Under the pieces are notes generated by a model. The model was not told where the DNA came from and did not search any database. It worked only from the letters and a program-made list of their open reading frames with translations. From a virus, in the IMG/VR virus record IMGVR_UViG_3300045988_034719, positions 1 to 5,894 of that record: DNA of 5,894 bases. One strand, 5' to 3'. Positions 1 to 5,894 of this stretch are shown here, piece by piece. Every line of letters begins with the position of its first letter. Position 1 is the stretch's first letter. The translations under genes were made by a program, and so were the position numbers.

Positions 1-55
1 AGCAGGCAGCGAGAGCAGCACAGGCAGCGAAAGCACAACCGGCAGTGTGACAGCA
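1..55. repeat. Terminal redundancy, left copy. Exact 55-nt duplicate of 5840..5894, the signature of a circular genome or assembly overlap.
   Basis: Base-by-base comparison: agcaggcagcgagagcagcacaggcagcgaaagcacaaccggcagtgtgacagca occurs at both window ends. The reading frame of the 3' end ORF (5736..5894) continues seamlessly into 2..757. Confidence 0.95.
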
Positions 56-757
56 CCGCAGCAGATCGGAACGGCACAAATCAGCACACCAACAGGCATT
101 GCCACATTTGGCAACCAGAGCAGTGTAAACACCGCAAACGCACTGCAAATGATGAGCGGACTACTGAGCAACCTCGCAAACGCCGGGAGCCAAGCAAGCG
201 CCAAGAAGTACAACAGCGCAGAAGCAGCAGCAGAAAGAGCGTTTCAGAAGGAAATGCGCGGGACAGCCTATCAAGACACTGTAAAAGATATGATCGCAGC
301 GGGCATCAATCCTATCTTAGCAGCGACCAACGGCGCAACAAGCTCACCGTCAGGAGCATCTGCAAGCATTGGAAGCCAACGTTATAACCAGCAGAGCGCA
401 CAAGCCGCAAGCGTATCCGCAATGTACGAATATGGCAACAACACAGCAGAGCTAGCAGACAAATACTTACAGCTAGCAAAACAGAGCACCAGCGCAAAAC
501 AGTATAAAAGCGCGAAAAGCTGGGAGCAGGCAGCAAGCGAGCTGGCAAGCTCAAGCGCAAAACAGGTGCAACAGTACACCTATACAGCTAACAAGTTAAG
601 CACAGGCCTTGCGGATGCTGGTAAAGCAGCAAAAGACGCTGTAAAAAAGGCTGGTAAAGCAGCCAAAGAAAGTATTGACAAGGCAGCAAAAAAATATGCA
701 GAAAAACAGATTGAAAAATACCGATCTAGAAAATTTGACGCATACAGAGGAGAATAA
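2..757 (+). CDS. VP2: Microviridae VP2 (DNA pilot / minor capsid protein), 3' portion. The ORF starts at 5736 and wraps across the circular junction. Full length is about 286 aa.
   Basis: The frame is open from position 2, and the track's GTG at 47 is an internal Val. It contains the conserved gokushovirus VP2 motif FQKEMRGTAYQDTVKDMIAAGINPILA (compare the ..STAYQR.V.DM.AAGLNP.L. family motif). The middle is Q/A/S-rich and the C-terminus is Lys/Ala-rich and helical. Stop TAA at 755..757, followed by a terminator. Confidence 0.85.
   Translation, partial: AGSESSTGSESTTGSVTAPQQIGTAQISTPTGIATFGNQSSVNTANALQMMSGLLSNLANAGSQASAKKYNSAEAAAERAFQKEMRGTAYQDTVKDMIAAGINPILAATNGATSSPSGASASIGSQRYNQQSAQAASVSAMYEYGNNTAELADKYLQLAKQSTSAKQYKSAKSWEQAASELASSSAKQVQQYTYTANKLSTGLADAGKAAKDAVKKAGKAAKESIDKAAKKYAEKQIEKYRSRKFDAYRGE
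617..669 (+). repeat. 33-nt-period direct repeat inside VP2, encoding 11-residue (hendecad) repeats AGKAAKDAVKK / AGKAAKESIDK.
   Basis: gctggtaaagcagcaaaaga (617..636) recurs as gctggtaaagcagccaaaga (650..669), with 19/20 identity and an offset of exactly 33 nt. Confidence 0.7.
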
Positions 758-763
758 GAAAGG

Positions 764-794
764 AAGGGGGGATGGCAAAACATCCCCCCTTTTT
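764..794 (+). terminator. Rho-independent terminator downstream of VP2.
   Basis: Stem ggggggatg (766..774) pairs with catcccccc (781..789), loop gcaaaa. AA/TT extension, then T-tract ttttt (790..794). It lies 7 nt after the VP2 stop. Confidence 0.8.
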
Positions 795-832
795 GTAACA
801 ATAATCCAAAAAATAAAGAATGTGGAAAACTT

Positions 833-1001
833 GAGTTTTCAACACTTTCAACAGGTTTTCAACAACAAGTTGCACAAAGAAATTCGTCAAAATGACGAAC
901 ATTCAACAATTCAACAAGTTTTCAACAAAGTATTCAACAGGAAAAAAGGCAATAAATAAACGTAGAAGCGTTAAAAAAACGAGTTTTCAACACTTTCAAC
1001 A
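833..1001 (+). repeat. Iteron array: nine same-strand copies of TTCAACA in three clusters, including a perfect 21-bp direct repeat.
   Basis: TTCAACA starts at 838, 847, 858, 902, 910, 921, 933, 986 and 995. Within-cluster spacing is 8-12 bp. gagttttcaacactttcaaca occurs at both 833..853 and 981..1001. The extended form (A/G)GTTTTCAACA occurs at 834, 854, 917 and 982. The region is non-coding by my assessment. Confidence 0.85.
883..899 (+). other. Small perfect hairpin between iteron clusters.
   Basis: ttcgtca (883..889), aaa, tgacgaa (893..899): a 7-bp inverted repeat with a 3-nt spacer. Confidence 0.5.
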
Positions 1002-1020
1002 CTACTACTACTACTACTAC
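1001..1020 (+). repeat. Trinucleotide microsatellite (ACT)6AC.
   Basis: actactactactactactac read directly. It abuts the last TTCAACA iteron (995..1001) and lies 7-10 nt upstream of an AT-rich TAATATATAAA box (1028..1038). Confidence 0.95.
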
Positions 1021-1044
1021 AACAAGTTAATATATAAAGAAAGC

Positions 1045-1095
1045 GAGGTGTCAACCGGCACAAGATAGACAAGGAAGCTTGTGCCGGTAACAAAA
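1045..1095 (+). promoter_or_regulatory. VP4 translation-initiation region: SD GAGGTG (1045..1050), an 11-bp-stem hairpin (1054..1064 / 1078..1088, 13-nt loop), then 7 nt before ATG 1096.
   Basis: accggcacaag (1054..1064) is the perfect reverse complement of cttgtgccggt (1078..1088). Loop atagacaaggaag contains a second SD-like AAGGAAG. The alternative GTG start (1081) is inside the 3' stem arm. Confidence 0.5.
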
Positions 1096-2085
1096 ATGCC
1101 ATGTACAAAACCATTAGTATTTCAGATGGACACGAAAAAACCGCAACTGTGGGGAAGTCTGGAAAACCTATCCAAACAAGGACTGCAAACGGACATCATG
1201 GACGGAATCAAAAAAGGAAAATTCGCATTGTTACCATGCGGTAAGTGTGAGTATTGCAGAAAACAGATGGCTGATCAATGGGCAACCAGAATAGAGCTAG
1301 AGGCCAAAGAATGGGACGATGTGATTTTTCTAACGCTGACATATGACGATGAACATATCCCATACGGCGAGATTATCAAAGGCTACAGAAGCATTCAAAG
1401 TCAGACAGTAAGCAAACGAGACGTGCAGCTATTTATAAAGCGGCTACGAAAAGCATACAAGAAACCAATAAAATATTTCCTAGCTGCTGAATATGGCGAC
1501 AGAACAAAAAGACCGCACTACCATGCAATAGTATTTGGACTAAAACCACCGGATGCACAATGGTATAAAAACCAAAAGGGCAACAGCTATTTTAAAAGCG
1601 AGTGGCTAGAAAAAATCTGGGGCAAAGGCATGATAGACTTTTCACCAGCGCAACCGGGAAGTTTCGCATATGTGGCACAATACGTCAACAAAAAAGCCAT
1701 AGGCGCAGAGCAAGCGGCGAAATACTGGATGGAAGGCCGAGAGCCAGAGTTCCGCATCATGTCGAAAGGCATCGGCGAAAAGTATCTGAACGAACACAAA
1801 AACGAAATCTTGAAAACAGATAGCATCATCTGTGCAGGAGGCCGCAAGAAAAGGCCTCCGCGCTATTTTGATAAGATTCTAGATAAAGATACCAGCCAAG
1901 ACACAGAAAACTATTTTAGGGCACATTCTGACGAGCTGAGAGAGGTTAGAGCCAGACGCAGACGCAGCGCAATACAAAGTTTGGTCAATCTCGAGCAAAA
2001 CACAAGTGTAGATTATGAAACCTATCTCAACATTCAGAAAGAAAAAGACAAGCTAAAGCAAAAGTGGCGTGAGCCGAAAGCATAA
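1081..2085 (+). CDS. VP4: Microviridae VP4 replication initiation protein (HUH rolling-circle endonuclease). The alternative start ATG 1096 is equally plausible.
   Basis: Motifs read from the translation: CGKCEYCRKQMADQW (Cys cluster typical of gokushovirus VP4), FLTLTY (RCR motif 1), RPHYHAIVFG (HUH motif, H146/H148, nt 1516..1524), YVAQYVNKK (catalytic Tyr motif, Y197/Y201, nt 1669..1683). Starting at ATG 1096 gives MPCTKPL, a typical VP4 N-terminus. Confidence 0.9.
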   Translation: MPVTKMPCTKPLVFQMDTKKPQLWGSLENLSKQGLQTDIMDGIKKGKFALLPCGKCEYCRKQMADQWATRIELEAKEWDDVIFLTLTYDDEHIPYGEIIKGYRSIQSQTVSKRDVQLFIKRLRKAYKKPIKYFLAAEYGDRTKRPHYHAIVFGLKPPDAQWYKNQKGNSYFKSEWLEKIWGKGMIDFSPAQPGSFAYVAQYVNKKAIGAEQAAKYWMEGREPEFRIMSKGIGEKYLNEHKNEILKTDSIICAGGRKKRPPRYFDKILDKDTSQDTENYFRAHSDELREVRARRRRSAIQSLVNLEQNTSVDYETYLNIQKEKDKLKQKWREPKA

Positions 2086-2199
2086 CGCGCACAGCGCTAA
2101 CAAGGAATGGATTAGCCGAGCTCCGCATACGCTACGCACGGCAAGGCGCTAAAGCGCCATTCAAAACAAAGGAGCAAGACCTGCGCAAAAAATAAAAAC

Positions 2200-2228
2200 T
2201 TGACAAATGTAAAATTTTATGATATAAT
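2200..2228 (+). promoter_or_regulatory. Consensus sigma70/sigmaA promoter P1 (TTGACA, 17 nt, TGnTATAAT).
   Basis: TTGACA at 2200..2205, exact 17-nt spacer, TATAAT at 2223..2228, extended -10 TG at 2220..2221, A-rich UP-like tract aaaaaataaaaac upstream. The predicted TSS is near 2235, just upstream of the SD and ATG of the 2254 ORF. Confidence 0.75.
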
Positions 2229-2253
2229 AGATCATAGAAAGGGGGCAAACATT

Positions 2254-2433
2254 ATGCCATACAAATACAACGAAAAAGGAAAGGTGATCGGATACACACC
2301 TAGTATAGGAGGATTCATGAGAGAACCATACACCACAAACAAAAAAACGGGCGAATGGGAGAGCCGATCAGGGCAACTCACAAGACAAAGAATCAATCAA
2401 TTAGACAAAGAGAAAAAAATAGCATGGTTTTGA
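2254..2433 (+). CDS. Hypothetical small protein, 59 aa (MPYKYNEKGKVIGYTPSIGGFMREPYTT...).
   Basis: ATG 2254 is preceded by SD AAGGGGG (2239..2245) with an 8-nt spacer, downstream of P1. The track's TTG start at 2200 coincides with the -35 box and would lie upstream of the TSS. I recognise no family. Confidence 0.55.
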   Translation: MPYKYNEKGKVIGYTPSIGGFMREPYTTNKKTGEWESRSGQLTRQRINQLDKEKKIAWF

Positions 2434-2445
2434 GAGGTAAGCAAT

Positions 2446-2616
2446 ATGAAAGAGTACAAATTTTTGGTGAGAGTATATTTCAAAAACGGTACAAAAGAAC
2501 AAAGAACGTGGATAGAGACAACCAAAGACGCCAAGGAAAAAGCAAAAAAATGCAGAGAGGAAACAAACGTAACAAAAGTAACGCTTTACAGAATAGACCA
2601 AACATTTGAGTTTTAA
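2446..2616 (+). CDS. Hypothetical small protein, 56 aa (MKEYKFLVRVYFKNGTKEQRTWIETTKDAKEKAKKCREETNVTKVTLYRIDQTFEF). Not in the ORF track because it is under 60 aa.
   Basis: Hand translation. SD GAGAGG (2432..2437) lies 8 nt before ATG 2446. The sequence has a globular-looking beta-beta-alpha-beta residue pattern. The stop at 2614..2616 lies 4 nt before the -35 box of P2 (tight packing). The competing 2355..2609 frame is Lys/Arg low-complexity. Confidence 0.5.
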   Translation: MKEYKFLVRVYFKNGTKEQRTWIETTKDAKEKAKKCREETNVTKVTLYRIDQTFEF

Positions 2617-2620
2617 AAAG

Positions 2621-2648
2621 TTGACAAAAATCAAAAACATAGTAAAAT
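2621..2648 (+). promoter_or_regulatory. Near-consensus sigma70/sigmaA promoter P2 (TTGACA, 16 nt, TAAAAT) in front of the peptidase gene.
   Basis: TTGACA at 2621..2626 and TAAAAT at 2643..2648. The upstream context AAAAAGTTGACAAA closely resembles P1 (AAAAACTTGACAAA). Caveat: the predicted TSS (about 2655) falls at the SD, giving a very short leader. Confidence 0.55.
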
Positions 2649-2667
2649 AAGAATAGGAGAATTAAAC

Positions 2668-3060
2668 ATGGAAATCAAAGCATATGTAGTAGAAGAACAA
2701 GGAAACGAACAAATCACAGACCACTTCAAAGTAAAAGAATTCGCTTGCAAAGACGGGACACCAATCGTATTTGTTGACGATTATTTAGCAGTCATTCTAG
2801 AGATCGCAAGAAAAAAAATCAATAAACCAATCGTCATCACAAGCGGATACCGCACAATAAACCACAACAAAAAAGTAGGAGGAGCAAAATACAGCTACCA
2901 TACGAGAGGCATGGCAGCAGACATCAGAGCGAACGGAGTAACGCCAAAGGAACTTGCAAAAGTGCTAAACAGCATCGTACCAAACAGCGGCGGAATCATC
3001 GTATATGAAAACTGGGTGCATTTCGACACAAGAAATGAAAAATACAGAAAGGGGGTGTAA
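2668..3060 (+). CDS. Zinc D-Ala-D-Ala carboxypeptidase-like cell-wall peptidase, Peptidase M15 (M15_3/M15A-type). Candidate endolysin, 130 aa.
   Basis: Motifs: ITSGYRTINHNKKVGGAKYSYHTRGMAADI and WVHFDTR, giving the H-x6-D...H zinc triad (H78, D85, H118) and the SxHxxGxAxD signature of LAS/M15 peptidases. SD AGGAGA (2655..2660) lies 7 nt before the ATG. No signal peptide or TM segment is evident. Confidence 0.85.
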   Translation: MEIKAYVVEEQGNEQITDHFKVKEFACKDGTPIVFVDDYLAVILEIARKKINKPIVITSGYRTINHNKKVGGAKYSYHTRGMAADIRANGVTPKELAKVLNSIVPNSGGIIVYENWVHFDTRNEKYRKGV

Positions 3061-3062
3061 CA

Positions 3063-3179
3063 ATGGCACACAGAAGCGGAGCAGGTCGAGGCGATCAAAG
3101 ACGCTTTACCCAGACAGCAAAGAGGGTAAAAAATGTCAACGTCCGACCGAAGGTCTCACGCGGCGGCATCCGACTGTAA
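3063..3179 (+). CDS. Small basic DNA-binding/packaging protein (phiX J-like / gokushovirus ORF8-like), 38 aa. Not in the ORF track.
   Basis: Hand translation: MAHRSGAGRGDQRRFTQTAKRVKNVNVRPKVSRGGIRL. It is rich in Arg/Lys and ends in RGGIRL, resembling the C-terminal (M)RGGIR(L/F) that I recall in gokushovirus ORF8 proteins. SD GGGGGTG (3051..3057) lies 5 nt before ATG 3063. The start is 2 nt after the peptidase stop. Confidence 0.65.
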   Translation: MAHRSGAGRGDQRRFTQTAKRVKNVNVRPKVSRGGIRL

Positions 3180-3210
3180 GCAATACAAAACAAAGAAAGG
3201 AGGTGACTTA

Positions 3211-3327
3211 ATGGCATTAATCAAAGTCAAGGACGTTAAAGAAGCAATCGCGCTGATGATGAACATCCTTGAAAAGCTAGATGAAATCTACCACGCACTG
3301 AAAGACGCAAACAAAGACAAAGAATAA
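3211..3327 (+). CDS. Hypothetical 38-aa amphipathic helical protein (MALIKVKDVKEAIALMMNILEKLDEIYHALKDANKDKE).
   Basis: ATG 3211 is preceded by AGAAAGGAGGTGA (3194..3206), a 13-nt perfect complement to the canonical 16S rRNA 3' end and the strongest SD in the window. The track's longer 3133 start has no SD and overlaps the J-like ORF. Confidence 0.55.
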   Translation: MALIKVKDVKEAIALMMNILEKLDEIYHALKDANKDKE

Positions 3328-3337
3328 AGGAGAAAAC

Positions 3338-3592
3338 ATGAAACTGAAATTCTACTCATTCCACGATGCACTGACCAACGGCTACTCTCAGCCGTTTCTG
3401 CAGAACAACAGGGCACAGGCAGTCCGGACGGCACGATGGAAGGCCAACGAAAGCAAACCGAGTGAAATTGAAGATATTTCACTCGTAGAACTGGGCGAAT
3501 TCGACACGGAAACCGGCTACATGAGCGAGGCAATGCCTGAACACATCGCACGACTCATCGACCTGAAGGAGACGACAAATGCTAAATCCTGA
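3338..3592 (+). CDS. VP5: Gokushovirus VP5-like protein (non-structural, implicated in ssDNA synthesis/packaging), 84 aa.
   Basis: The pattern MKLKFYSFHD..YSQPF......AVRT........ED..LVELGEFDTETG matches the conserved VP5 layout (Y.QPF, A.R.F, ED..L.E.G.FD..TG). SD AAGGAG (3327..3332) lies 5 nt before the ATG. Confidence 0.8.
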   Translation: MKLKFYSFHDALTNGYSQPFLQNNRAQAVRTARWKANESKPSEIEDISLVELGEFDTETGYMSEAMPEHIARLIDLKETTNAKS

Positions 3593-3998
3593 TGTGATGG
3601 TAAGATACTACGGACTGCCGACCGAAAGAGCGGCAAACAATCCGGGCAGCAAGACCTCGCCAACGTGGAAAGCAGTTAAACGACCGAACGGCACAACCGA
3701 CTACATCGAGCAGCCGGACGAGGACACATACGAAAAAATCCAGAAAGCGGGCGAGGGCTACGACCTTGCAAGCGCGATCGCACGGCTGGAAGCAGGGGAT
3801 ACGAGCATCAAGGCAAAGAGCATGGTGTACACCGAAAACACTGAACTCGAAAATCTGCCGAAAGACATCATGACGATGCACGAAAAAGCAGAAGCAGCAG
3901 CCGAAACAATGGAACAGCTGAAACAGGTGCAGCAGACCGAACAGCCGAAGCCAGAAGAAAAAAAGGAAGAGGTGAAGGAAAACGAACCGAAACAGTGA
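3579..3998 (+). CDS. Putative internal scaffolding protein (VP3-like), 139 aa. The functional assignment is tentative.
   Basis: SD AAGGAG (3566..3571) lies 7 nt before ATG 3579. There is a 14-nt overlap with VP5, and the gene sits immediately upstream of VP1. The protein is acidic with a highly charged C-terminal tail (EQPKPEEKKEEVKENEPKQ). I can verify only weak resemblance to VP3 motifs. Confidence 0.55.
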   Translation: MLNPDVMVRYYGLPTERAANNPGSKTSPTWKAVKRPNGTTDYIEQPDEDTYEKIQKAGEGYDLASAIARLEAGDTSIKAKSMVYTENTELENLPKDIMTMHEKAEAAAETMEQLKQVQQTEQPKPEEKKEEVKENEPKQ

Positions 3999-4023
3999 AA
4001 ACCATTTCGCGCAAGTGCCGCGA

Positions 4024-5697
4024 ATGGAACGACCACGAAGCAAATTTGACAGAAGCCATCAGCTACTGACAACCATCAACGAAGGCGATCTGGTGCCCAT
4101 CTACTGCGATGAAGTGCTTCCGGGTGATACAGCACGTGTACGCCTGAACGGACTTATCCGTATGAGTACGCCCATCTATCCGGTGATGGATAACGCATAC
4201 ATGGACACATATTTCTTCTTTGTTCCATGCCGTCTGCTGTGGGAACACTGGGAGAACATGTTCGGCGAGAATGACACCGACTACTGGGCGCAAAAGATGG
4301 AATACAGCACACCCAAATGCGAAATTGGTGGGGAGAGCGGACTTAACAACGGCAGCATTGGCGACTATTTCGGACTGCCTACCGGAGTAAAAAACAAAAT
4401 CAGAGTGAACGCGCTGCCAGCACGCGCCTACGCCATGATATATAACGAATGGTTTAGAGATGAAAATATTGAAGCGCCGTTAATGTTAGGGTACAAAAAA
4501 GAAGATAGCGGAGGAAAAGAAACAAATCCCGGGAACGCAACAAAAGATTACTACGCAAACAAACCAAAACTAACGACAAACACAAACGAAGCGATCTTAT
4601 ACGCACGACAACCGGCAAAGGTGGGAAAATTCCACGACTACTTCACATCCTGTCTTCCTACTCCGTTGAAAAATAACCCTGTTAACCCTGTGGAAATCAG
4701 CCTGACGGGAAATGCACCACTTAAACTAGGAGATATAAATGGTAAACCAATTCCAAGCCTAGAAACGGGCAATGGGCCAGAAATGGTAATAGCCGTGAAC
4801 CAAAATCTAAATACCCCGGGAACGTTAACTTACGCAAGAGCAACAGACAAAAAAGTAATGCAATTCACGGGAAAAAAGGATAACGAAATCGGCGGAGGCG
4901 GTTTTTTGTACACAGACCTCAGCGGAGTAAGCGCAATCAGCATTCAGGATTTGCGCATGGCTATTGCCTTGCAGCACATCTTTGAAGCAGATGCACGCAA
5001 CGGCACGCGCTACCGCGAGTTCCTTTCCGGCGCATGGGGCGTGACAAGTCCGGACAGCCGTTTACAGATTCCTGAATACATCGGCGGCCAACGCATCGCG
5101 ATCAATATCAACCAGGTTGTCCAGACGAGCCAGACAGACCCGACAACCAAACAGGCACTGGGCAATACGGCGGCATACAGTCTGACCACGTGCAGCAAGC
5201 AAATGGTGGACTATGCGGCGACCGAATACGGCTATATCATCGGTCTGGCAGTAGTGCGAGTAGAGCACAGTTACCAGCAGGGACTGGCAACCAAGTGGAC
5301 ACGTGGCGGGCGGTTCACCTACTACGACCCGAGACTAGCAGCACTGGGCGAGCAGCCGGTATATAACCGTGAAATCTATGCACAGGGCACAACCGAAGAT
5401 GACGAAATCTTTGGATATCAAGAGGCATGGGCGGATTACCGCTACAAGCCTTCCTACGTAACCGGAGAAATGAGATCCAATTACCAGACAAGTCTGGATG
5501 CATGGCACTATGCAGACGATTATAACGCTCTTCCGCGTCTCTCGGCAGAGTGGATCCAAGAGGGACAGGAGAACATCGACCGAACGATTGCAGTAACAAG
5601 CGCAAAAAGCCACCAATTCTTGTGTGACTTCTACTTCACAGAAGATTGGTATCGCGAAATGCCTATCTATAGCATCCCGGGCATCGAGAGAATCTAA
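4024..5697 (+). CDS. VP1: Microviridae major capsid protein VP1 (Phage_F family), 557 aa. An alternative GTG start lies at 4015.
   Basis: N-terminal RSKFDRSH....T.NEGDLVPIYCDEVLPGDT, plus LRMAIALQHIFEADARNGTRYREFLSGAWGV..PDSRLQIPEYIGG, are hallmark VP1/F motifs. No SD precedes either start. A 6-bp hairpin (4006..4011 / 4019..4024) spans the start region. Confidence 0.95.
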   Translation: MERPRSKFDRSHQLLTTINEGDLVPIYCDEVLPGDTARVRLNGLIRMSTPIYPVMDNAYMDTYFFFVPCRLLWEHWENMFGENDTDYWAQKMEYSTPKCEIGGESGLNNGSIGDYFGLPTGVKNKIRVNALPARAYAMIYNEWFRDENIEAPLMLGYKKEDSGGKETNPGNATKDYYANKPKLTTNTNEAILYARQPAKVGKFHDYFTSCLPTPLKNNPVNPVEISLTGNAPLKLGDINGKPIPSLETGNGPEMVIAVNQNLNTPGTLTYARATDKKVMQFTGKKDNEIGGGGFLYTDLSGVSAISIQDLRMAIALQHIFEADARNGTRYREFLSGAWGVTSPDSRLQIPEYIGGQRIAININQVVQTSQTDPTTKQALGNTAAYSLTTCSKQMVDYAATEYGYIIGLAVVRVEHSYQQGLATKWTRGGRFTYYDPRLAALGEQPVYNREIYAQGTTEDDEIFGYQEAWADYRYKPSYVTGEMRSNYQTSLDAWHYADDYNALPRLSAEWIQEGQENIDRTIAVTSAKSHQFLCDFYFTEDWYREMPIYSIPGIERI

Positions 5698-5707
5698 GAA
5701 AGGAGGA

Positions 5708-5733
5708 AGCCCCGCAAAAGCGGGGCTATTTTT
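5708..5733 (+). terminator. Rho-independent terminator between VP1 and VP2. It also acts as the hairpin bridging SD 5699..5706 to the VP2 ATG at 5736.
   Basis: agccccgc (5708..5715), loop aaaa, gcggggct (5720..5727), then atttttt... (tattttt to 5733). It lies 11 nt after the VP1 stop (5695..5697). Confidence 0.75.
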
Positions 5734-5735
5734 GA

Positions 5736-5894
5736 ATGGAAACATTATTAAGGTTTATGCCATACCTCATGCAAGGACTAAGCATGTTAACGGGCATCAT
5801 AACGAACAGCAACCAGAGCGGCGCCAAGAACAGCCAAGAAGCAGGCAGCGAGAGCAGCACAGGCAGCGAAAGCACAACCGGCAGTGTGACAGCA
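5736..5894 (+). CDS. VP2: VP2 (DNA pilot protein), 5' portion. It runs off the window end and continues at position 56 of the window (5840..5894 duplicates 1..55).
   Basis: The frame from ATG 5736 (METLLRFMPYLMQGLSMLTGIITNSNQSG..) is in frame with 2..757, since 5886 GTG equals 47 GTG. It has the hydrophobic N-terminus typical of VP2. An in-frame alternative ATG lies at 5757. Confidence 0.75.
   Translation, partial: METLLRFMPYLMQGLSMLTGIITNSNQSGAKNSQEAGSESSTGSESTTGSVTA
5840..5894. repeat. Terminal redundancy, right copy. Identical to 1..55.
   Basis: Same 55-nt string as 1..55. Implies a circular unit length of 5839 nt. Confidence 0.95.

Follow-up and report, generated by a model that had tools for sequence, protein, structure and literature searches.

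Microviruses are among the most abundant phages of the gut. In lambdoid phages, extra transcription units called morons are inserted between core genes, and expression from the prophage is the classical rationale for them. In T4-type phages, PeSL (promoter-early stem-loop) cassettes are located in hyperplastic regions (Arbiol et al., 2010, PMC2839356). In the part of Roux et al. (2012, PMC3394797) cited here, a horizontally acquired M15_3 peptidase and adjacent unknown open reading frames (ORFs) are described in gut Gokushovirinae. The cited part of Kirchberger et al. (2022, PMC9239249) describes microvirus genomes as rigid, with few accessory genes and little exchange beyond the genus level, and reports recombination at the peptidase region with elevated identity between divergent microviruses. 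Here we analyzed a viral DNA of 5,894 nucleotides (nt), corresponding to positions 1 to 5,894 of IMG/VR record IMGVR_UViG_3300045988_034719 (hereafter the window), with the focus on the interval between the genes VP4 and VP5. In this gut gokushovirus, the region from a conserved structured element (CE) to the M15 peptidase gene is probably a hyperplastic slot for accessory genes. The slot is exchanged between two genome backbones, and its cargo may be directed at the host.

The window resembles the cases in both reports with respect to the M15 family, the Clostridiales affinity and the neighbouring 'unknown' ORFs. The acquisition of M15 and the adjacent unknown ORFs are already known from the cited part of PMC3394797, and occasional recombination at the peptidase is known from that of PMC9239249. 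These parts of the two papers hold no account of a defined slot, ORFan families, a duplicated promoter, a structured flank or a 38-residue gene. We found no description of the slot, of ORFan families spread across backbones, of the conserved and duplicated promoter, of the covarying flank or of the conserved 38-residue gene. The turnover of unrelated small genes between lineages at one slot is unexpected for a family thought to be genomically rigid. As this turnover extends across backbones with 35–48% core identity, even 5.8-kb single-stranded DNA (ssDNA) phages appear to keep a flexible accessory compartment.

Architecture of the VP4–VP5 interval

Bases 1–55 of the window recur at 5840–5894, and the window therefore represents a complete circular genome of 5839 nt. 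The genome is that of a gut gokushovirus (an ssDNA microvirus), and the nearest deposited genomes are human-gut Gokushovirinae. All core genes were assigned, and the plus strand carries every gene. Minus-strand ORFs were rejected as genes because the plus-strand frames are those that selection follows. The features between VP4 and VP5 are as follows.

2084–2184, plus strand: CE, non-coding, about 100 nt, three hairpins directly 3' of the VP4 stop codon; left anchor of the slot
2194–2228, plus strand: predicted promoter P1, A-tract, −35 TTGACA (2200–2205), 17-nt spacer, TG-extended −10 TATAAT (2223–2228); 12/12
2254–2433, plus strand: ORF59, 59 residues, basic (isoelectric point, pI, 9.8), globular cargo protein, found in microviruses only
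2446–2616, plus strand: ORF56, 56 residues, basic (pI 9.5) cargo protein with a predicted beta-beta-alpha-beta fold
2615–2648, plus strand: predicted promoter P2, A-tract, −35 TTGACA (2621–2626), 16-nt spacer, −10 TAAAAT (2643–2648); 11/12
2668–3060, plus strand: M15_3 zinc peptidase, probable endolysin; Pfam PF08291 (1.5e-22), phrog_894 (endolysin; 7e-42)
3063–3179, plus strand: ORF38a, J/VP8-like predicted DNA-binding protein (core); phrog_10695 (5e-6)
3211–3327, plus strand: ORF38b, amphipathic helical 38-residue core-like gene with a nearly invariant ILEKLDEIYH core

An initial annotation, made from the sequence alone, had placed an A/T-rich accessory cassette at 2190–3330. The ORFs of 59 and 56 residues and the M15 peptidase that it listed are all found at the positions given above, and each ORF is preceded by a purine-rich Shine–Dalgarno sequence of its own, 6–9 nt upstream, as had been claimed. 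The CE is located just beyond that interval.

Exchange of the slot between backbones

The comparison set consists of about 100 related genomes and loci, labelled L001 and so on. They include KX513876 (L001), MT121961 (L002), KX513868 (L003), KT264784 (L095), KX513864 (L096) and an IMG/VR contig (L008). L001 and L002 are 88–92% identical to the window at the nucleotide level up to position 2184 and again from position 2722, and nothing aligns between these positions. Their M15 proteins are only 58–60% identical to that of the window. In L003 and L008, VP4 is 35% identical and VP1 is 42–48% identical to the window proteins. L008 carries the block 2084–3069 at 95.05% nucleotide identity without gaps, and L003 carries it at 85% overall. 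L007 and L012 have the backbone and the M15 allele of the window, but they are different across 2182–2665. Comparison with relatives had been suggested initially as a check for an indel, and the outcome is clear: the cassette is missing from the nearest relatives and is present on a distant backbone. According to these alignments, slot blocks are exchanged between backbones whose core proteins are 35–48% identical.

The content of the slot was surveyed in 76 loci having both CE and M15 (backbone A, 29; backbone B, 46; unassigned, 1). ORFs of at least 40 residues were counted, and they were clustered with strict boundaries, excluding VP4 fragments and CE-spanning frames. By this count, 35 of the 76 loci have an empty slot. 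The other 41 contain one ORF, rarely two, from 11 unrelated families. In an earlier set, the CE–M15 interval is 60 nt or shorter in 22 of 69 loci. Seven of the nine multi-member cargo families are found on both backbones, and L002 and L046 still contain truncated, C-terminal pieces of ORF56-family genes. No match of the cargo families was obtained against Pfam, PHROGs, NCBIfam and PADLOC, except for a zinc-ribbon family of other genomes with sub-threshold generic hits. A sub-threshold match to Lar (8e-4) belongs to a different cargo family of other genomes.

Junctions between shared and unshared sequences are observed at the CE 3' end/P1 A-tract (2173–2184), in the ORF59/ORF56 spacer, in the P2 A-tract, at the M15 Shine–Dalgarno/ATG (2664–2667) and at the M15 stop codon (3069). 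A metagenome assembly joined chimerically at the CE could give a false mosaic, and non-functional frames in A-rich DNA could be mistaken for genes; this combined alternative is highly improbable. The CE has about 100 nt and is nearly identical between lineages, and it could in principle mislead an assembler. L159, however, an independent ENA assembly of another sample (k = 119), matches the window at every base across the two junctions (100% identity), and in a further assembly of the mosaic only 2 bases are different. A chimera was rejected on the basis of these two assemblies. A-rich DNA does give long chance frames, such as the 84-residue ORF at 2355–2609, which was rejected as an off-frame shadow of ORF56 with a ratio of nonsynonymous to synonymous rates (dN/dS) of about 1 or more. 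Selection is nevertheless restricted to the annotated frames, which belong to families of full-length members with confidently predicted folds.

As the initial annotation had noted, the stretch 2190–3330 is A/T-rich relative to the core genes. The GC content is 0.366 in 2190–3060 and 0.526 in 4900–5700, compared with a genome mean of 0.457. The segment 2185–2667 (GC 0.333) is the most A/T-rich part: ranked by GC content against every 483-nt segment of the circular genome, it belongs to the bottom 0.6%, and the genome minimum begins at 2187. The GC content at third codon positions is 0.40 for ORF59, 0.37 for ORF56 and 0.43 for M15, against 0.54–0.61 for VP1, VP3 and VP5. Filled slots are A/T-rich in both lineages (mean GC 0.359 vs 0.453 for the whole locus; 33 of 36 loci), and the low GC content is therefore a mark of the compartment, not of one particular import. 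The composition shift had been taken as a sign of horizontal acquisition. The region 2185–3069 is indeed non-core and horizontally exchanged, but its low GC content is not in itself evidence for a single import.

Promoters and the transcription unit

No other site in the whole genome agrees with the sigma-70 consensus as well as P1 and P2, which are the only matches of at least 9/12 on the coding strand. The 14-nt context AAAAA[C/G]TTGACAAA occurs in exactly two copies, at 2194 and 2615, against 0.01 expected. The two consensus promoters with nearly identical upstream context were thus correctly recognized at the outset. Among related loci, a promoter of at least 10/12 is present between the last CE hairpin and M15 in 61 of 69, against 2.3 expected. 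When the slot is empty, the promoter is located about 25 nt 5' of the M15 ATG, and when the slot is filled, it is located 5' of the cargo. A second copy is present 17–23 nt 5' of M15 in nine genomes including the window, where the distance from the P2 end to the M15 ATG is 19 nt. P2 is kept in L003 and L008 even with a different upstream ORF, and a second promoter is also seen at the P2 position in six more relatives.

Because 61 of 69 relatives have a promoter at the P1 site, and because it is the only one before M15 when the slot is empty, P1 occupies the site of a conserved main promoter. Judged from this position, the M15–J–38b–VP5–VP3–VP1 operon has P1 as its conserved main promoter, the cargo is located behind P1, and P2 is a duplicate. 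No terminator was found in the window between ORF56 and M15. The earlier view that P1 and the ORFs at 2254 and 2446 form a separate early or constitutive unit does not hold, given this missing terminator and the promoter of the relatives at the P1 site. Terminator-like hairpins on the coding strand are located only at 5708–5727 after VP1 (a GC-rich stem followed by a T-run) and at 764–791 after VP2 (a G6/C6 stem followed by TTTTT, in the plus-strand reading). Since these are the sole sites of this kind, a single long operon starting from P1/P2 is likely.

The −35 motif is tandemly duplicated in two relatives. CAATTGACA is present three times in L039 (about 1355–1395), and AAAAACTTGA is present twice in L003 (about 1515–1540). 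Such duplications point to slippage or recombination within the promoter.

The left edge of the slot is thus formed by the CE and a near-consensus sigma-70/sigma-A promoter, and the right edge by the horizontally acquired M15 gene. In the window, the content is ORF59 and ORF56, followed by P2 just before M15. The following mechanism is proposed. During co-infection, homologous recombination at the repeated regulatory sequences would lead to slot exchange. Recombination between P1 and P2, through their 14-nt direct repeats, would delete ORF59 and ORF56 and produce the single-promoter empty form observed in 35 of 76 relatives. P1 would transcribe ORF59 and ORF56 and read through to M15, J/VP8, ORF38b and the structural genes, and P2 would provide extra transcription from M15 onwards.

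Comparison with PeSL cassettes and morons

By analogy, the closest mechanistic counterpart of the slot appears to be the T4 PeSL cassette. In PeSL cassettes, as in the slot, promoters of the sigma-70 consensus type follow an A/T-rich tract and are located directly 5' of the ORFans of a variable region. Genes that one genome has and a close relative lacks are bordered by direct repeats of the motif, which fits insertion or deletion by recombination between motifs. In the window, the sigma-70 promoters are represented by P1 and P2, and the A/T-rich tract is represented by AAAAA[C/G] directly 5' of both −35 boxes. Both promoters are positioned 5' of ORFans or at the flank of a variable region whose presence or absence the flanking copies would explain. 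A PeSL promoter also has a stable stem-loop, within or beside it, that serves as a terminator or attenuator. In the window, hairpin 3 of the CE (GGCGCTAAAGCGCC) is located about 35 nt 5' of the P1 −35 box and is not followed by a T-run. PeSL cassettes are also characterized by many dispersed copies per genome and by mini-circles, and such a multi-copy distribution is not seen in the window. T4 is a 170-kb double-stranded DNA myovirus with about 50 copies, whereas the window is a 5.8-kb ssDNA microvirus with one slot and one or two promoter copies. In addition, the stem-loops of the window belong to a separate covarying three-hairpin element, which is present 5' of P1 only and has no terminator features.

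The cargo also resembles morons. It consists of extra genes that close relatives lack at the site, that deviate in base composition and that have their own promoter immediately 5'. A moron has its own promoter and its own terminator; here the promoter is present and the terminator is missing between ORF56 and M15. As there is no terminator 3' of the cargo, the cargo is not an autonomous unit. Moreover, the phage has no integrase, and the rationale of prophage expression is therefore inapplicable.

The conserved structured element

The CE shows 85–100% nucleotide identity on both backbones, whose proteins share 35–48% identity. Its stems covary. Pair 42–57 occurs as UA in 27 sequences and as CG in 26, pair 41–58 as GC in 41 and as AU in 12, and pair 36–63 as GC in 48 and as UA in 5. 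In the stems, 99.4% of the cells are paired, the observed covariation was reached by none of 500 shuffles, and the slid controls collapse. A search of the CE and the remaining window against Rfam gave no family match, and the CE was not found in the fetched genomes without M15 or with another gene order. An open frame spans the CE, but it was rejected as a coding region: the window has no start codon there, and the variation in the stems is compensatory. The CE may serve as an origin of the complementary strand, as an anchor for recombination or as an element of the transcript. Together with the conserved promoter, this structured DNA element is directly testable.

The cargo proteins ORF59 and ORF56

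ORF59 differs from its counterparts in L003 and L008 by four silent and no replacement differences. Matches to L009 and L092 in the selection comparison were discarded as spurious alignments. With divergent members as query, the ORF59 family consists of 37 clusters at 42–59% identity, all of 56–63 residues. The longest contigs of the family are of microvirus size, and the genes are always located in the same slot. ORF56 is represented by about 60 database clusters at 71–96% identity, and is present on both backbones with either M15 allele. Its dN/dS is 0.02–0.21 in the annotated frame, and most comparisons in other frames gave values of about 1 or more. Frames that are not conserved or are frameshifted in close relatives had been named initially as grounds for refutation. 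The frames proved to be intact, conserved and under purifying selection. According to these comparisons, ORF59, ORF56 and both 38-residue ORFs are real genes under purifying selection, and ORF59 and ORF56 are dispensable, microvirus-specific proteins.

The AlphaFold model of ORF59 (predicted local distance difference test, pLDDT, 92.6) has four short strands and a C-terminal helix, and that of ORF56 (pLDDT 82.5) has the beta-beta-alpha-beta topology. ORF59, ORF56 and ORF38b have no match in Pfam, PHROGs, NCBIfam and PADLOC. When ORF56 was compared with the 'YEL' cargo family, P = 7e-4 with 27% probability was obtained; the other beta-beta-alpha-beta cargo families are unrelated to it. In the Foldseek comparison, E is 0.35 or larger for every match, including those to the known small phage inhibitors phi29 p56 and T4 Dmd. 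A relationship of ORF56 with phi29 p56, which has an acidic DNA-mimic surface, or with T4 Dmd was rejected on the basis of E values of 0.6–2.4, template modeling (TM) scores of 0.37–0.52 and the basic pI of ORF56. Matches in BFVD are one member of the ORF59 family and one uncharacterised protein of 'Podoviridae sp.'. The latter (A0A8S5MDJ1, 61 residues, from a gut assembly) is fitted to the ORF59 model with a TM score of 0.70, 27% identity and E of 0.017. Judged from the models, the ORF59 fold may also exist in tailed phages. The slot as a whole yields a compact set of 50–80-residue proteins, predicted to be well folded, which can be screened for host targets or for inhibition of defence.

The M15 peptidase and lysis

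The match of the peptidase to PF08291 has a score of 80.2 bits, against a gathering cut-off of 23.2. The H-x6-D zinc-ligand motif SYHTRGMAAD is aligned to SRHMYGHAAD of 1LBU, and the third histidine (WVHFD) was assigned by reading the sequence. The dN/dS of M15 is 0.07–0.15. TG-extended −10 boxes and strong Shine–Dalgarno sites seem typical of Firmicutes. The closest cellular homologues of M15 are from Clostridia, with 36–50% identity. A Clostridiales affinity of gut-gokushovirus M15 is reported in the cited part of Roux et al. (2012, PMC3394797).

ORF59 and ORF56 could be lysis accessories for M15 (holin, antiholin, timing factor, or factors for release or activation of the enzyme), which we consider quite unlikely. 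They are located immediately 5' of M15 and are predicted to be co-transcribed with it. M15 lacks a signal peptide. The genome has no evident holin, and the VP2 N-terminus is its only evident transmembrane segment. That the slot is able to hold a holin-like gene is suggested by L021 of lineage B, in which a 55-residue protein (2775–2942) is encoded directly 5' of M15. This protein has a strongly hydrophobic segment, with a 19-residue Kyte–Doolittle maximum of 2.50, and is a holin-like candidate. A holin has at least one transmembrane segment, whereas the corresponding maxima are −0.18 for ORF59, −0.59 for ORF56 and 1.07 for ORF38b, and no hydrophobic segment is present in ORF59 or ORF56. As both proteins are basic and predicted to be soluble, they are neither holins nor acidic DNA mimics. 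M15 is also found without any cargo in 35 of 76 genomes, the cargo family of a genome is not linked to its M15 allele, and at least 11 unrelated families are found in the slot.

In L095 and L096, a divergent M15 allele (43–45% identical) is located 3' of J and ORF38b. The endolysin gene is therefore placed at different points within the VP4–VP5 interval.

Possible function of the cargo

Our tentative proposal is that ORF59 and ORF56 act on the host, in counter-defence or takeover, and not in lysis or virion assembly. This host interaction is proposed because the proteins are dispensable, the families turn over rapidly, they are spread across lineages and they take the first place behind a strong promoter. 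Alternatively, ORF59 and ORF56 might bind nucleic acids and modulate replication or gene expression of the phage itself, tuned to particular hosts, in functional analogy to the non-essential K, A* and C of phiX174. Both proteins are basic, small and well folded in the models, and their genes are located beside VP4 and the CE. Foldseek against the PDB showed no likeness to any DNA- or RNA-binding fold. The absence from close relatives and the replacement by unrelated families would be unexpected if the targets were conserved phage sequences. Such a modulator function is unlikely.

Several points weigh against a hyperplastic, exchanged slot with host-directed cargo. The activities of P1 and P2 are predicted from their sequences. 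The match to PeSL is incomplete, because the genome has just two copies of the promoter and no stem-loop adjoins P2. Several of the right-hand junctions (2664–2667) are located 3' of P2 and not within P2, and the promoter repeat is therefore not the sole crossover site. In the cited part of Kirchberger et al. (2022, PMC9239249), exchange beyond the genus level is rare in microviruses. For ORF59 and ORF56, neither Foldseek against the PDB nor profile searches of PDB sequences gave a significant match, and both proteins are basic, unlike DNA-mimic inhibitors.

A broader proposal would be that the CE–promoter–cargo slot is a dedicated platform for gene capture and exchange in Clostridia-infecting gokushoviruses. 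The CE would be a host-recognised origin or recombination signal, the repeated promoter would be the crossover site, and the ORFan families, at least 11 in number and including ORF59 and ORF56, would be a hitherto unrecognised repertoire of small proteins with which ssDNA phages counter host defence or take over the host. This proposal is speculative, and we regard it as rather doubtful.

The two 38-residue genes

The initial annotation listed one 38-residue ORF in the cassette. The ORF at 3211–3327 (ORF38b) was confirmed, but its assignment as an accessory gene was not: it recurs in 100 loci, 94 of which have an ATG start, and in 31 GenBank gokushoviruses, almost never annotated, and some of the genomes that contain it have no M15. 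A second 38-residue ORF of the interval, at 3063–3179 (ORF38a), had not been named.

ORF38b and its counterpart in L001 show 11 silent and no replacement differences. The identity across lineages is 68–79%, which is above that of VP1 or VP4. The hydrophobic moment is 0.83, and a heptad pattern is recognized by eye. In some lineage-B genomes, ORF38b starts right at the M15 stop codon or overlaps with it. From its distribution and conservation, ORF38b is a core-like gene and not cargo.

J/VP8 is defined as a protein of 25–40 residues rich in arginine and lysine (PMC3091885). ORF38a agrees with this definition, having 38 residues with 11 lysine plus arginine, one aspartate or glutamate and a pI of 12.0. 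The dN/dS is 0.02–0.13, and the C-terminal RGGIRL is common to the lineage-B homologue. Judged from these features, ORF38a is a core J/VP8-like basic protein and not cargo, and DNA binding is predicted. ORF38a was missed by gene callers in three public assemblies of the window genome, and is unannotated in all four GenBank relatives that have the gene. The annotation is corrected here for these two conserved 38-residue genes, which were missed in deposited genomes and by gene callers. Three gene orders were observed: M15–J–38b in the window lineage, M15–38b–ORF75–J in lineage B, and J–38b–M15 in KT264784 and KX513864.

Other features of the genome

The remaining genes of the window are as follows.

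5736–757 (spanning the origin), plus strand: VP2, pilot protein
1081/1096–2085, plus strand: VP4, replication initiator
3338–3592, plus strand: VP5
3579–3998, plus strand: VP3, scaffold
4015–5697, plus strand: VP1, capsid

In the A/T-rich VP2–VP4 intergenic region (838–1001), TTCAACA occurs nine times, all on the plus strand, against 1.0 expected. In lineage B, this element is inverted and is located between VP4 and the CE, adjoining the cargo slot (L003, 1206–1404; L004, 3742–3939, reverse orientation). A perfect 10-bp inverted repeat (CCGGCACAAG ... CTTGTGCCGG), recognized by eye only, is present at 1054–1086, with AAGGAAG within the loop. Its 3' arm spans the GTG at 1081, just 5' of the VP4 ATG at 1096. 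This repeat may be a candidate hairpin for translational control. A (TAC)6 microsatellite is located at 1003–1020 in the same intergenic region.

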